Source of the DNA: Candidatus Kuenenia stuttgartensis
GTDB lineage: Bacteria > Planctomycetota > Brocadiia > Brocadiales > Brocadiaceae
Reading direction: 5' to 3'
Assembly (NCBI RefSeq): GCF_900232105.1
Contig: NZ_LT934425.1
Coordinates: 840,001-872,000 of the forward strand
Length of the DNA stretch: 32,000 nucleotides
In this document: positions 26,583 to 32,000 of the stretch, one piece after another
How positions within the stretch are numbered: position 1 is the stretch's first letter
Layout of the letters: every line of letters starts with the position of its first letter
Made by a program: the position numbers and the translations under genes
The notes under the pieces: generated by a model
The model's database searches: none
What the model saw: the letters and a program-made list of their open reading frames with translations, nothing else
What the model was told of the DNA's origin: nothing

Positions 26583-28220
26583 TTATTTTTTATATGAATC
26601 CAGCAAAGCAACGAGGTCCTTATCTTTTTGCCCTGAGGTTTCGAGGATATTTCTCACCTTCCCGATAAAACTGTAGCCTTCTTCAATTTTATCCCTTAAA
26701 AGTAGTTGTACAACCAGTGTGAAGGTAAGTTTTTCGATGATTTTCCCGGCATCTGGTATGTTTGCGGCAAGCATTTTTTCTTTTAACTCTAATTTTTGGT
26801 AAAGAATATCTACCGAAGGAGTAAGCGTGCCGGTAAAATCATCAAACAGTGCGTTTTCTTTTTGGAGATTCAGCACGTTGGCGGCAGCATCAATTACGGT
26901 AACGGTCATAGGCGCCGGCCCGCAGAGATAAAATGCTATATCAGGGTCAGGGGTAAGGTATTTATTGAGCAGCGGCCCTATAAATCCCTTCTCCCCCTGC
27001 CATTGTTGCTCCTGCTCATCAATGTATCCTTGTTTTTTAGCTAGTTGTTTACCCTCATCGGCAAGACTCAAAAAGCACTTCTTATCTATTTCATTTAACA
27101 TGGCAGGGTCGTCATCGCGAAACGCACCGGAAAGTACAGGAATGAATTTAAAATTGGGGTTTTGCATTTGCCACTTTAACCATTTGGGCAAATACATTAT
27201 TGGAATATCCTGGAGTCGCCTTTCTCCCAGGAAAAATATCGCCTTCTCCTGCCTTCCCTCTATGAACCATTGTTCCAATAACGCCAATATTGGTGCAAGT
27301 CCTGCCCCTCCAGCCACAAATACCGCAGTGTGTGGTTCTGTTTTCAGAGAAAAATGGCCGTAAGGTCCTGTAAAATGTATTTTTTCGCCGAGAAAGAAAT
27401 TCCACAAACTCCGTTCCTGGGTATAGTGATGTACACAACTAGGCCCGATGCATGGGGCGCCACCACTTTCCACCGCCTTTGAAGGATCTACGGGGGCCAA
27501 TCGAACAATAAGCTTTAAAAGGTCTGGTTCGTATGAAGCGAGCGAATAGCCTCTATACATGGCATTCCCCGGTTTATAAGGAATAAATTCTTTCCCCAGA
27601 TTTTCACACGCCTTCTTTATATGAGTTTCGTATTTATTATAATGTTCCTCCACAAAATCTTCCGGAAGCATTAATTGAATATATTGACCGGGTTTATACG
27701 CAATAGGCTTTGAAGGTTTAAGCCATATTTCCATTTTATCGCTGGTGATCAGAATCTTTTTGACTGCCCTGGCTGTGTACTTTTTTACATTGAGGGTATC
27801 TTTTGACAGGTACAAACTAACATCCTTCTCCACCCGCACCTGACATGCCAGACGTTCATAACCATCTCCGATACCATCTTCCAGAAATTTTTTTGCATTT
27901 TCCCGGGAGCGCATATCAAAATGCGGCGTTTCAACGGCCGTATACAAACCGACATCGGTATAAAGTTTCACTTTACACTGACCGCATGTTGCCATCCCTC
28001 CACACGCCGCCGGAATATTAAAGCCATTGTTTTGTAATAATGATAAGAGCCTTTCTCCGCCTTCAATATTAAGCTCTTTCTTAAACTCATCATCACTTAT
28101 AACAGTTAGCTTTTGTTTTGCCCCACGCCCGAAAAACTGGAAGATGATCTCGCACACTAAACTTAGTGCCAATATGAGTACGGCGAGAATACCTGCGCCT
28201 AAAAATAAAGGGGTAAGCAT
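26583..28220 (-). CDS. nqrF: NqrF-like subunit: TM anchor, plant-type 2Fe-2S ferredoxin domain and FNR-like FAD/NAD(P)H domain, with an insertion and an 81-aa C-terminal extension
   Basis: 545 aa. N-terminal TM helix. Cys73/79/82/126 in ACGGMATCGQC...LACQV. FAD motif RGYSLAS. NAD motif VFVAGGAGLAPI. The canonical end YLCGPAPM...FDDFTG is followed by 81 more residues (nt 26586-26828). Confidence 0.85.
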   Translation of the reverse strand: MLTPLFLGAGILAVLILALSLVCEIIFQFFGRGAKQKLTVISDDEFKKELNIEGGERLLSLLQNNGFNIPAACGGMATCGQCKVKLYTDVGLYTAVETPHFDMRSRENAKKFLEDGIGDGYERLACQVRVEKDVSLYLSKDTLNVKKYTARAVKKILITSDKMEIWLKPSKPIAYKPGQYIQLMLPEDFVEEHYNKYETHIKKACENLGKEFIPYKPGNAMYRGYSLASYEPDLLKLIVRLAPVDPSKAVESGGAPCIGPSCVHHYTQERSLWNFFLGEKIHFTGPYGHFSLKTEPHTAVFVAGGAGLAPILALLEQWFIEGRQEKAIFFLGERRLQDIPIMYLPKWLKWQMQNPNFKFIPVLSGAFRDDDPAMLNEIDKKCFLSLADEGKQLAKKQGYIDEQEQQWQGEKGFIGPLLNKYLTPDPDIAFYLCGPAPMTVTVIDAAANVLNLQKENALFDDFTGTLTPSVDILYQKLELKEKMLAANIPDAGKIIEKLTFTLVVQLLLRDKIEEGYSFIGKVRNILETSGQKDKDLVALLDSYKK

Positions 28221-28232
28221 GTTTACTCCAAC

Positions 28233-29651
28233 CTAAAAAATACGAATCATTCCAATGCCGGTAAATATAGCGGCCATTATGCCAAGTAAAAGGATTGCTA
28301 TTGTATCTTCATCCCATGCATTTGTTGGCACAAAGAGACGCTGACGTCTCAACAATGCAAGCCAAACAGTAACCATTAGCCAGTGAAGTCCATACCCAAA
28401 CGCAGTAATGGTTGAAACCATAAAAGATGTGCCTGTAGGAATGGTAAATGTTGCACTGGCAAGTACAATACAATTTACGGTAATTAGTTCAAGAAACTGC
28501 CCCATTTGTTCATATGCCGTTCGTGCAAATTTTCTAAGCATCACGCTTAATGTTTGCACAAATACGGCAATGGTTACAATAAATACTGTCAGGTAGAAGA
28601 TTTTCTCCAGCCGTATTGACATGGATGAATATTTTGCTAAAACATCGCTTCCCATTATCAACACCTTATTATATACCACCCAGTTTAAAGCAGTAGAAAG
28701 CGTCATAACGATAATTACGGCAATCCCCATTTTCCATGCCGCATCTATTTGCCGTGATTTATTGAGCAACGGGCATATGCCTAAAAGTTTACTGAGTACT
28801 ATACCATCAAAGAAAAGGGCATTTAATAATATTGGCAAAAAAATAAGAAACTGAGTATGCAATGTCGGGCTGGTACGAATGTGTACAATGATACTTATAA
28901 ACAAACAGATGCCCAGCCCGATGGTAATTAACGATTTTCGGGAAATTTCAAACTTTGAACGCGGGGCAGGAACAGGGCCTTCTTCCGGTGTCTCAACAGC
29001 GGCGCATTCACATGAAGCCGCTTCCTGATAGACAATCCTTGCCTTGAGCAAGAAAGGACGCATCATGAGGCGAAATCCCGCCAATGCGAAAAATCCTCCC
29101 ACGGGAGTTATCATTAACACAACGCGAGGAAACGTTTCCGGAATTACGGAAAAGCCCATAATCGTGCCAAAACCCAGCGGTTCCCGCAGAAAGGCAAGCA
29201 ATATCAGCGCAAAAGCATATCCCATACACGCCTTTAAAATCTTTTTCTGCGCTTCCCAGAATGGCACCGTTAACCCTTCAGAAATTACGGCAAGCACTAT
29301 ACAATTAGTGGTAATAAGGTCGATATATGCCCTGATACTGGCAGCCACCTCCGGCACAAACGCCTGGGCAAAGAATGCAAAAATGGTCACAAACACCGAA
29401 ACAATAATCATTAAAAGCGAAATCTTGTGGTGTGATCCCGCTATGGTTATTAATCTTCGAAATGGATAAATTAAGGAAAAACTCCCCATTGCAACAAACA
29501 ACACACCAAGTCCCATCGTCAGAGAATTTTCGAGTTTATTCGTTACCGCCAAAGCAGAACAAAACCCTAAACCGGCGCCTGCGGTTAAAATAAGATTGTC
29601 TCTCAAGAAAAATTTAGAAGTTTTTCGTATATGTCGCTTTAGTCCTACCAT
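28233..29651 (-). CDS. Fused NqrD/RnfE-like and NqrE/RnfA-like membrane subunit
   Basis: ATG 29651 is preferred (GGAG RBS 7 nt upstream); the ORF track gives TTG 29675. Residue numbers below follow the ORF-track translation. The N-half motif GLGFCSALAVTNKLENSLTMGLGV (Cys39) with TTNCIVLAV (Cys125) resembles NqrD/RnfE. The C-half motif KLLGICPLLNKSRQIDAAWKMGIAV (Cys301) with TVNCIVLAS (Cys402) resembles NqrE/RnfA. The ~70-aa linker contains one extra hydrophobic helix. Confidence 0.8.
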   Translation of the reverse strand: MVGLKRHIRKTSKFFLRDNLILTAGAGLGFCSALAVTNKLENSLTMGLGVLFVAMGSFSLIYPFRRLITIAGSHHKISLLMIIVSVFVTIFAFFAQAFVPEVAASIRAYIDLITTNCIVLAVISEGLTVPFWEAQKKILKACMGYAFALILLAFLREPLGFGTIMGFSVIPETFPRVVLMITPVGGFFALAGFRLMMRPFLLKARIVYQEAASCECAAVETPEEGPVPAPRSKFEISRKSLITIGLGICLFISIIVHIRTSPTLHTQFLIFLPILLNALFFDGIVLSKLLGICPLLNKSRQIDAAWKMGIAVIIVMTLSTALNWVVYNKVLIMGSDVLAKYSSMSIRLEKIFYLTVFIVTIAVFVQTLSVMLRKFARTAYEQMGQFLELITVNCIVLASATFTIPTGTSFMVSTITAFGYGLHWLMVTVWLALLRRQRLFVPTNAWDEDTIAILLLGIMAAIFTGIGMIRIF

Positions 29652-30328
29652 TTCTGTTCTCCGGATTTTCTCCAAAATTCCTGTACTGCGTCATTGATAA
29701 ACTCCTCAATACCCCTGCTTGTATTGGTAGCACCGGTTATAGCATCAAATTCATTATCACCCGTAGCTTTCCGCTCCTTAACCATCTTGATTTGCGGTTT
29801 TAATTTCATTCCAACAAATTGCTTTTTAAATATATCTTCCGTCATTCTTCCACCAAGTCCAGGAGTCTCGCTGTGATCCAATACTTCTATCCCTTTCAGC
29901 GTTTCCATGTCAGGTTTCAGGCAAATAAACAAAGACATGGCGCTTGATTTATTATATCCATATCCTATCCTTGACCTGATAAACCCTATCCCTTGCAACT
30001 CTCCGTCTTTAATGAATTTATATACCTTCCCCTCTTCTTCGTTTTTTGCCCCGACAGCTTCGGTTTCATCAACGGTTATCGACGTATCAAATACTTCTCT
30101 TATATTATCTTTATCGTACCCTTTGATAGTAAAACCCATGATGGTTTTTTCAGTTGTACGGTATGGAATTCCAAAGATATCAAGAACAGCACGTTTTTCC
30201 TTTATTTCATGATATGCGGCAATTTTCGGTGCTGTATAAAAATATACCAAAAACAATCCGGTACACGGAATAAATGCAATGAAAAGGATCGAGAAAATAC
30301 GGAGTATAAACGTCTTAAATTCTTCCAT
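29645..30328 (-). CDS. nqrC: NqrC/RnfG-like FMN-binding subunit
   Basis: 227 aa. N-terminal TM anchor. DHSETPGLGG motif. Flavinylation motif DAITGAT (Thr201). Confidence 0.8.
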   Translation of the reverse strand: MEEFKTFILRIFSILFIAFIPCTGLFLVYFYTAPKIAAYHEIKEKRAVLDIFGIPYRTTEKTIMGFTIKGYDKDNIREVFDTSITVDETEAVGAKNEEEGKVYKFIKDGELQGIGFIRSRIGYGYNKSSAMSLFICLKPDMETLKGIEVLDHSETPGLGGRMTEDIFKKQFVGMKLKPQIKMVKERKATGDNEFDAITGATNTSRGIEEFINDAVQEFWRKSGEQKW

Positions 30329-30403: not shown

Positions 30404-31507
30404 TCAGGTGCGGTATCTTATTTTTACCATCAACGATTGAATGGGTATTGCAAGCAAATTCATAAGCAATATAGCATACATTGCTCCTTCAGACAGTGTG
30501 GTATAATTCCTTAGCAACACGGTAATAAATCCACACCCTATGCCATATATCCATTTCGCCTTCTGATTATAGGTTGCTGTAATAGGATCTGTAATCATAT
30601 AAAAAGCACCCAATACTAACCCTCCGCTCAGGAGCTGAAAAATAGGCGGGGCAACATTTTCCTTTGACAGGAGTGAAAACATACCTGAAAAGATAAACAC
30701 GCTGCCAAAATAGGACACCGGCAACCGCCAGTTCGCAACCTTCATTTTTACAAGCCATATACCGGACAGTATAAGTGCTAATCGGCAGGTTTCTCCCAAA
30801 GAGCCATTCGCAGTACCTATGAGCAGGGAAAAATAAGAAGTGATGGTGCCGTCTGTCTTAAACGCGGTAAGCGGGGTAGCGTGGGTAATGGTATCAAGCC
30901 CATACCGCAAGGTATGAAGATCAGGTATACCGACAAAAGGCATCTGGTAGCCTGTCGCCAAAAGTGACGGGAAACATATTGTCAGGAACAATCGGCTAAA
31001 TAGCGCAGGATTCACCAAATTGTACCCAACGCCTCCCAATATATTTCTGAAGATAATGGCCATTGCTGCGCCAAAGCCTATCAGCCAGAGAGGCGCTTGT
31101 GGTGGCAGAATGGCGGGAACGAGCAGGCACGAAACAAACCCTCCCTCACTAATGTGATCTTCCCTGGCAATTATTGCCCATATCACATCAACAACAAACA
31201 CCCCAACAACAAGTGAAACAATCAATTTCGAAATCACACACTGTAACCCGTAAAAATACATCGCAGGAAACACCCATCCCATTGTCAGCGCAATAAGCAC
31301 AGCACCCATAAACTTTTTCGTGTCCGTGTTGTTTCGGATAAAGGGCTGTGTCTGCGCTGTATGTTTGGAGCTGCGCAACAAACCGTCAAACGCTTCAAAA
31401 ACTGCCCCAAAAAGGAAATTGACTGTTTCGTGGGTATGGATAAAGGTCTCTATCCTGTCAAGATTCTTATTAAGTGGCGATTCGAGTTTATTGAGTAATT
31501 TCTTCAT
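30404..31507 (-). CDS. nqrB: NqrB/RnfD-like polytopic membrane subunit
   Basis: 367 aa. The N-terminal cytoplasmic stretch resembles NqrB (ETFIHTHETV...PFIRNNTDTKK). Also ILPPQAPLWLIGFGAAMAIIF..GGVGYNLVNPAL. Flavinylation-type motif DTITHAT at nt 30875-30895. Confidence 0.85.
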   Translation of the reverse strand: MKKLLNKLESPLNKNLDRIETFIHTHETVNFLFGAVFEAFDGLLRSSKHTAQTQPFIRNNTDTKKFMGAVLIALTMGWVFPAMYFYGLQCVISKLIVSLVVGVFVVDVIWAIIAREDHISEGGFVSCLLVPAILPPQAPLWLIGFGAAMAIIFRNILGGVGYNLVNPALFSRLFLTICFPSLLATGYQMPFVGIPDLHTLRYGLDTITHATPLTAFKTDGTITSYFSLLIGTANGSLGETCRLALILSGIWLVKMKVANWRLPVSYFGSVFIFSGMFSLLSKENVAPPIFQLLSGGLVLGAFYMITDPITATYNQKAKWIYGIGCGFITVLLRNYTTLSEGAMYAILLMNLLAIPIQSLMVKIRYRT

Positions 31508-32000
31508 GCTTTTTGTACATCCGGCGATTTACATTCCTTGATGATCCGCAACAATTCAATTTTCGAAGGGCATGCAAAACTGCACAGACCGCATTCAATA
31601 CATTTTTCTATATCATAACTACGCACCTTCTGTTTTTCTCCTCTGTTGTAGGCCTGGTGGTACAAAGCAGGTTCTAAATTAACAGGGCAAATATCATCAC
31701 AGAAGTTACAATACACGCAGGCTCGCAATTCCCCAAGCAAATTAGTGGTAAAATGCAGCCTATCCGTGTTAATCATAGGAAACATCTCTTTCTTATCCTG
31801 CGCCGCCAGAACAACAATGTCATTTACCGTCCAGCCAATTTTTTGAGCAAAATCGTTAACTTCCATTCCTCTTAACGGACCGTTTATAAACACACGATAA
31901 GGGGCGGTCTCCTTTACCCTGTTTTTTAGTATTTTTTCAAGGGTTGTTCCCAACTGCACCTTGATAAACTCATTTTCCTTAAGACCTGTGCCCGAAAGGG
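31504..32000 (-). CDS. RnfC-like / NqrA-position subunit, C-terminal part (5' end outside the window)
   Basis: The reading frame stays open upstream of the ORF-track GTG (31959) to the window edge. Two canonical CxxCxxCxxxCP motifs, CVYCNFCDDICP and CIECGLCSFACP (nt 31570-31719), as in RnfC. ATGA overlap with the downstream NqrB-like gene. Confidence 0.7.
   Translation of the reverse strand, partial: LSGTGLKENEFIKVQLGTTLEKILKNRVKETAPYRVFINGPLRGMEVNDFAQKIGWTVNDIVVLAAQDKKEMFPMINTDRLHFTTNLLGELRACVYCNFCDDICPVNLEPALYHQAYNRGEKQKVRSYDIEKCIECGLCSFACPSKIELLRIIKECKSPDVQKA

Follow-up and report, generated by a model that had tools for sequence, protein, structure and literature searches.

The window analysed here is a 32,000-nucleotide stretch of the genome of Candidatus Kuenenia stuttgartensis (NZ_LT934425.1, positions 840,001 to 872,000), and it carries on its minus strand a gene that very probably encodes a genuine, vertically conserved fusion of the NqrD/RnfE-like and NqrE/RnfA-like subunits of an Nqr-type redox-driven ion pump, joined in one chain of 472 amino acids with 13 transmembrane helices. 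The gene is the fourth in a five-gene operon and lies in an open reading frame (ORF) at 28233..29675 that comes to 480 amino acids when counted from a TTG codon. An earlier note on this DNA had described a single ORF with both homologous halves, and the placement of domains bears this out: Pfam finds two Rnf-Nqr domains (PF02508) in the ORF (E=2.3e-60; 204 bits against a cut-off of 23.8), and on the 480-residue ORF the NCBIfam models of the RnfE/NqrD type fall at about residues 25-206 and those of the RnfA/NqrE type at about residues 276-478. The novelty implied for the fusion was overstated, because a 2019 genome paper already reports that the anammox operon has 'fused D and E subunits' (PMC6828613). 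The literature searched yielded nothing on the linker helix or its topological role, nor on how widely the fusion is distributed; the anatomy of the linker, the distribution of the fusion and the residue changes associated with it are what is added here, a modest gain on a known fact.

Translation of the fusion gene almost certainly begins at the ATG at 29651, for a product of 472 amino acids, rather than at the TTG at 29675, which falls within the upstream nqrC-like gene. The ATG is preferred because it has a GGAG 7 nucleotides upstream, because it shares a 7-nucleotide overlap with the stop of the nqrC-like gene (ATGGTAG at 29645-29651), and because the orthologues are all 469-478 amino acids long. 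The overlap suggests that translation of the nqrC-like and fusion genes is coupled. Residue numbers refer to the 472-residue protein unless marked as 480-residue numbering.

Each half of the protein resembles its expected paralogue type more than the opposite one. In phmmer comparisons the N-terminal (D) half matches RnfE and NqrD chains (9eri_E 2e-19, 7zc6_E 1.6e-17, 7xk3_D 1e-13, versus 1.3e-08 for RnfA), and the best matches of the C-terminal (E) half are NqrE and RnfA (7xk3_E 2.4e-23, 9eri_A 3.4e-20). Foldseek template modelling scores (target) are 0.90-0.91 for the C half against NqrE and 0.71-0.77 for the N half against NqrD/RnfE. NqrD and NqrE of the Vibrio cholerae Na+-NQR (7xk3, chains D and E) have the same six-helix folds, and their four cysteines align with those of the fusion. 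The four cysteines earlier picked out as conserved (39, 125, 301 and 402 in 480-residue numbering) had been placed correctly, and as C31, C117, C293 and C394 they are invariant in every fused sequence aligned and in register with the solved RnfE/NqrD and RnfA/NqrE chains. In the enzymes of known structure NqrD/E and RnfA/E form an inverted pair about a pseudo-two-fold axis in the membrane plane, the ligands of the [2Fe-2S] cluster are NqrD-C29/C112 with NqrE-C26/C120, or RnfA-C25/C113 with RnfE-C25/C108, and recent work ascribes Na+ translocation and the inward/outward switch to the D/E (A/E) pair (PMC12901251, PMC11889175, PMC9588780). The statement that D and E pair antiparallel and share an Fe-S centre through these cysteines agrees with that literature, with the refinement that the centre is specified there as [2Fe-2S] and not as a single Fe (PMC12901251, PMC11889175). 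By alignment with these chains, the fusion would bind the cluster through its own four cysteines, and its halves are proposed to form the same kind of antiparallel pair as RnfA/RnfE.

Joining two such halves in one chain has a topological cost. Since the helix count of each half is even, direct fusion would leave the second half misoriented; a review of inverted-topology proteins, in which E. coli YdgQ/YdgL (homologues of RnfE/RnfA) are listed as an antiparallel heterodimer pair, states that fusing antiparallel homologues requires an odd helix count (PMC3962082). Hydropathy and an AlphaFold model, from which the helix boundaries were taken, give the fusion a layout of 6+1+6 helices. The linker is an insertion of about 70 residues, of which 24 form the helix, and the nucleotide ranges previously given for the linker and its helix (~28851-29063 and 28878-28934) are correct. 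The structure-prediction check that had been proposed for the fusion returned the extra helix, at residues 238-260 (block pLDDT, predicted local distance difference test score, of 71-86), in a model with an overall pLDDT of 77.8 and a pTM (predicted template modelling score) of 0.77 built from a 46-sequence alignment. The soluble part of the linker, which carries 7 Lys/Arg, has pLDDT 38-47 and is without secondary structure in the model, with residues 204-237 disordered.

The distribution of charge is consistent with this layout. With 13 helices, the N-terminus inside and the C-terminus outside, 28 Lys+Arg lie inside versus 7 outside, and over the family the same model puts 22-28 inside and 5-9 outside. 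The N-terminal tail of the D half holds six Lys/Arg. Taken alone, the C half shows a Lys/Arg bias of 9 versus 4 toward N-out, as expected for RnfA/NqrE, an orientation that would be violated without the linker helix. The two halves therefore have opposite positive-inside bias with an odd number of helices between them, the pattern of fused antiparallel inverted-repeat proteins. Sääf and colleagues in 1999 reportedly placed the N-terminus of RnfE inside and that of RnfA outside, and the in/out assignment of the unfused proteins rests on this topology together with charge bias; where an anammox evolution paper cites the 1999 study, it does so solely for a plasmid. The earlier proposal that the extra helix supplies the odd count needed to keep the halves antiparallel is supported, as a prediction, by the hydropathy of the linker, the AlphaFold helix and the Lys/Arg bias, and it is from these that we infer the actual membrane topology.

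In the unfused enzymes two six-helix paralogues, inserted in opposite senses and sharing a [2Fe-2S] cluster held by two cysteines from each, rock between inward-open and outward-open states to move Na+. In the fusion the chain would leave the D half on the cytoplasmic side, pass through a disordered, positively charged cytoplasmic segment of about 40 residues, span the membrane once more as the linker helix (237-260) and enter the E half from outside, so restoring the antiparallel pairing and the four-cysteine site. The likely gain would be an obligatory 1:1 stoichiometry and co-insertion of the halves.

Some points weigh against this explanation. The fusion protein reaches no curated NCBIfam cut-off: its best scores, with cut-offs in brackets, are rnfA 135.9 (229.3), RsxE 121.7 (184), nqrE 121.1 (247.6) and nqrD 115.7 (235). 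Because all of these equivalog scores fall short, the protein appears to belong to a divergent branch whose biochemistry may differ from that of Vibrio Nqr. The alignment behind the AlphaFold model consisted of fusions and E-type single subunits and is shallow for the N half. A joint MAFFT alignment of fusions and unfused subunits was set aside, as it stacked both paralogue types on the N half.

Were the single ORF an artefact of sequencing or assembly, or the product of recent read-through in the manner of a pseudogene, D and E would really be separate. False fusions do occur in public data, where we met frameshift noise (P0200) and an apparent read-through without a linker (P0126), and on one Logan contig the gene is itself split into pieces of 209 and 275 amino acids. 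Against this, the identical protein is encoded on 330 contigs, the longest of 4.4 Mb, among them the closed 4.33-Mb Ca. Kuenenia stuttgartiensis genome CP049055.1. A scan with one genome per species returned 64 loci, and in 59 fetched loci (including L004, from the second clade described below) there is an intact fused ORF of 469-478 amino acids. Orthologues are 67-96% identical within anammox bacteria and about 43% identical in the second clade, and the linker is an insertion of about 70 residues with a helix of its own, not a lost stop codon. The assembly error named in the earlier note as a possible refutation is answered by these data, and we regard an artefact as extremely improbable. The named genera with the fusion are Kuenenia, Brocadia, Jettenia, Loosdrechtia and Scalindua; the Wunengus contig (L061) ends within the fusion gene. 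All contigs of sufficient length show the gene order A'-B-C-DE-F.

The survey of Rnf/Nqr operons for D-E fusions that had been called for was extended to 1.84 billion cluster representatives, a search in which two-domain proteins are expected to rank above single subunits. It gave four candidates: the anammox cluster, P0121, P0126 and P0200. P0121 (475 amino acids, 46% identity) forms with P0280 and P0281 a small second clade (clade 2) of proteins of 461-475 amino acids and 43-46% identity, found on short Logan contigs (loci L004, L074 and L075, from SRR22388260, SRR29324594 and SRR22387820). The clade 2 operon reads A'(Fe-S)-B-C-DE-F, with an F of about 542 amino acids, and so matches the anammox order. 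Among unfused proteins the D half is closest to P0127 (40% identity), whose operon, B-C-D-E-F, encodes D and E as two genes. On the sequences covered, the conserved fusion is confined to anammox bacteria and one sister lineage, and always comes with the linker helix.

The linker helix is kept in character and not in sequence. All 59 loci and clade 2 have a hydrophobic linker segment, the Kyte-Doolittle 19-residue mean being 1.95-2.89 in every sequence examined, and the clade 2 helix, likewise hydrophobic, is unrelated in sequence to the anammox helix. The frequency of the majority residue, calculated over the 59 loci and the window sequence, is 0.86 in the D half and 0.86 in the E half, 0.63 in the linker helix and 0.55 in the soluble linker. 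Because its hydrophobicity is conserved while its sequence is not, the helix fits the part of a mainly topological spacer. It could instead be an internal signal-anchor after which the chain is cleaved following translation, leaving mature D and E as separate proteins, and the linker does have a signal-anchor-like succession of a positive stretch (RSKFEISRK), a hydrophobic core and a polar stretch. Such cleavage is nevertheless very unlikely: past the helix there is no conserved small-x-small motif and the residues vary by genus (HIRTSP, NIKTIP, NLKAFS), there is no lipobox, the helix cysteine is missing in Scalindua, and the AlphaFold helix is regular, of membrane length and continuous with the one that follows. 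On these sequence grounds we rejected lipobox or signal-peptidase processing at the linker helix, and we infer that the fused protein remains uncleaved.

The cysteines of the linker had suggested an extra metal site to the earlier note, which located them correctly (C222 and C224 in the linker and C257 in the helix, 480-residue numbering). As a rival reading, a cysteine-bearing cytoplasmic linker would bind a metal or Fe-S centre that passes electrons to the intramembrane cluster. The CxC motif is retained in Kuenenia and most Brocadia, it reads CGC in L023, some Brocadiaceae have 3-4 cysteines (CECAASEC...C), and in the topology model the segment is cytoplasmic, on the same side as the iron-sulfur domains of A' and NqrF. 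The motif is, however, absent from all Scalindua loci, from Jettenia ecosi (L018), from Loosdrechtia (L035) and from the Brocadiaceae loci L010 and L021, and among the other loci the cysteine count of this stretch ranges from 2 to 4. In clade 2 the linker has CC (P0121, P0280) or one cysteine (P0281), at a different position. The segment is also the least conserved of the protein and predicted to be disordered, and two cysteines by themselves make no cluster site. An electron-passing centre in the linker is accordingly quite improbable to us, and an essential extra metal site is unlikely because the motif is missing from Scalindua, Jettenia and Loosdrechtia. The Cys-rich acidic stretch does exist in the window protein but is restricted to some lineages and is not a feature of the family; from this distribution, CxC appears to be a lineage-specific decoration and not a core cofactor site.

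Residue changes next to the cluster were counted as motif hits in the protein sequences from the searches. In all 161 anammox motif hits of each half, the position six residues before the second cluster cysteine (Cys-6) holds an acidic residue, Asp in D halves and Glu in E halves. In unfused relatives, with both paralogue types pooled, Cys-6 is Pro in 79 of 112 hits and Gly in 13 of 112, and clade 2 has the canonical Gly (D half) and Pro (E half). The equivalent of Vibrio NqrE-E95 is Gly, Ser or Thr in anammox bacteria, plus 5 hits with Ile, and never Glu; it is Glu in 46 of 75 unfused hits and in clade 2. In the window protein NqrE-E95 aligns with Ser369 and NqrD-D133 falls in an alignment gap, so that neither of these residues, both implicated in Na+ translocation, is matched by an acidic residue in the alignment. 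NqrD-G106 and NqrE-P114 are replaced by Asp and Glu. For NqrE-P114, a role as the hinge in inward/outward switching has been suggested (PMC12901251). Together these differences point to an anammox-specific remodelling of the putative ion path beside the cluster.

The other genes of the operon are of mixed affinity. The B subunit is nearer to RnfD (7zc6_D, 1e-39) than to NqrB (5e-30). Its presumed FMN (flavin mononucleotide) attachment motif is THAT, as against TTAT in the RnfD of C. tetanomorphum and TGAT in that of Azotobacter. The A' gene, which the window end cuts, encodes in full a protein of 348 amino acids (L001:7102-8148) that aligns to RnfC residues 145-428, without the first ~140 residues of RnfC, and is nearer to RnfC (1.2e-20) than to NqrA (2.4e-04); its two CxxCxxCxxxCP [4Fe-4S] motifs are conserved in 49 loci, and its match to Complex1_51K is 23 bits, under the cut-off of 31.2. 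A' thus falls short of a full-length RnfC with its N-terminal and FMN/NADH-binding domains. For the NqrF-like subunit the best NCBIfam match is TIGR01941 nqrF (2.2e-46, 158.6 bits against a cut-off of 295). The nqrF model, of 405 positions, covers only residues 8-370 of this subunit, leaving about 175 C-terminal residues without family assignment, and the extra length is kept in the anammox orthologues and in clade 2 (542 amino acids). The RnfB polyferredoxin is not in the operon, A'-B-C-DE-F being flanked by unrelated genes. With A' and NqrF and without RnfB, the gene set looks like an intermediate, or a third type, between Rnf and Nqr.

Comparison with the known complexes gives the same picture. 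Like that of Na+-NQR, the operon has NqrF-, NqrB- and NqrC-like genes, but the Vibrio NqrD and NqrE are separate chains where here there is one polypeptide with a 13th helix, and NqrA is cofactor-free in Na+-NQR whereas A' keeps its two [4Fe-4S] motifs. The N half, B and A' are nearer to RnfE, RnfD and RnfC of Rnf (A. woodii, 9eri; C. tetanomorphum, 7zc6), yet unlike Rnf the operon has an NqrF-type reductase in place of RnfB and has D and E fused. Judged by its gene content, the anammox complex is a mosaic, best classed neither as a standard Na+-NQR nor as a standard Rnf, and the fusion marks a clade-specific anammox respiratory complex with unusual features. A bolder reading, which we offer tentatively and on balance doubt, is that A'BC(DE)F is a distinct third Rnf/Nqr branch with an RnfC-derived A', an NqrF-type NADH (reduced nicotinamide adenine dinucleotide) module, a fused D-E rocker and a remodelled ion site, in which a pseudo-symmetric Asp111/Glu388 pair would replace the usual Gly/Pro by the [2Fe-2S] cluster and NqrE-E95 would be lost. 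Such a branch could differ in its coupling ion (H+ rather than Na+), in the potential of the cluster or in physiological direction, and could, for example, power CO2 fixation by reverse electron flow; in that case the fusion would belong to a coordinated redesign rather than being an isolated accident.

Fusions of the same logic are known among other membrane proteins. In two-domain fluoride exporters, oppositely oriented homologues are fused through a linker helix. The DUF606 fusions show the same duplication, opposite orientation and fusion, with an extra helix needed for an even repeat (PMC3962082), although their fold and function are unrelated and the module described here carries a predicted intramembrane redox cofactor. 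The internal inverted repeat of NqrB/RnfD is an older, fully diverged case of the same kind; because its repeat unit is odd, with five helices, it needs no extra helix, and its halves can no longer be recognised as paralogues by sequence. In the Rnf-Nqr D/E family the extra helix is mandatory because the helix count is even, and the fusion offers a clean natural example of the last duplication-inversion-fusion step toward inverted-repeat membrane proteins. A natural single-chain D-E fixes stoichiometry and orientation and is convenient for expression, mutagenesis and structure work.

Table 1. Coordinates of the fused gene, its parts and its operon partners, in positions of the window.
Feature	Position	Strand	Basis
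A' gene, 3' part (window end cuts gene), RnfC-like, two CxxCxxCxxxCP motifs	31504..32000	-	profile matches; RnfC alignment
NqrB/RnfD-like subunit, 367 amino acids	30404..31507	-	PF03116
NqrC/RnfG-like FMN-binding subunit, 227 amino acids	29645..30328	-	PF04205; NCBIfam rnfG/nqrC matches
nqrDE-like fused gene, 472 amino acids and stop	28233..29651	-	two PF02508 domains; exact protein on CP049055.1
D half, residues 1-197, RnfE/NqrD-like, six helices, N-terminus predicted cytoplasmic	29061..29651	-	phmmer, Foldseek, Lys/Arg of the N-terminal tail
Cys31 (GFC), predicted cluster ligand, = NqrD-Cys29 / RnfE-Cys25	29559..29561	-	alignment; invariant
Asp111 (D half Cys-6), aligned with NqrD-G106	29319-29321	-	alignment
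Cys117 (TNC), predicted cluster ligand, = NqrD-Cys112 / RnfE-Cys108	29301..29303	-	alignment; invariant
Soluble linker, residues 198-236, predicted cytoplasmic and disordered, Lys/Arg- and Pro-rich	28944..29060	-	AlphaFold, charge count, conservation
CEC motif, Cys214-Glu215-Cys216, lineage-specific	29004..29012	-	59-locus comparison
Linker transmembrane helix, residues 237-260, SRKSLITIGLGICLFISIIVHIRT, 7th of 13, predicted inside to outside	28872..28943	-	hydropathy 2.43; AlphaFold
E half, residues 261-472, RnfA/NqrE-like, six helices, N-terminus predicted outside	28236..28871	-	phmmer, Foldseek
Cys293 (GICP), predicted cluster ligand, = NqrE-Cys26 / RnfA-Cys25	28773..28775	-	alignment; invariant
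Glu388 (E half Cys-6), aligned with NqrE-P114	28488-28490	-	alignment
Cys394 (VNC), predicted cluster ligand, = NqrE-Cys120 / RnfA-Cys113	28470..28472	-	alignment; invariant
NqrF-like subunit, 545 amino acids: N-terminal helix, 2Fe-2S ferredoxin domain, FAD (flavin adenine dinucleotide)/NAD(H) domain	26583..28220	-	PF00111, PF00175

Several further candidates were set aside in the course of the survey. P0200 was rejected as a D-E fusion, being the frameshift noise mentioned above. P0126 (377 amino acids, L069:4001-5134, on a metagenome scaffold) is an RnfE-RnfA fusion without a linker in a canonical rnfB-C-D-G operon, and is a singleton among 15 billion proteins; its junction reads ...AAG AAT ATG GAA..., with simply no stop codon. 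It was not accepted as a second fusion type, since a real fusion and an error are not distinguishable there; with 6+6 helices it would be topologically awkward, and it could stem from a sequencing error or be a defunct gene. L068, labelled 'Planctomycetota PNC21' and 33% identical, is not a distant fusion but a heavily frameshifted Scalindua-like copy at the start of a 2.86-Mb contig. L065, a would-be Thermodesulfobacteriota fusion, is 70% identical to the query, as the Scalindua genes are, and is probably mis-binned.

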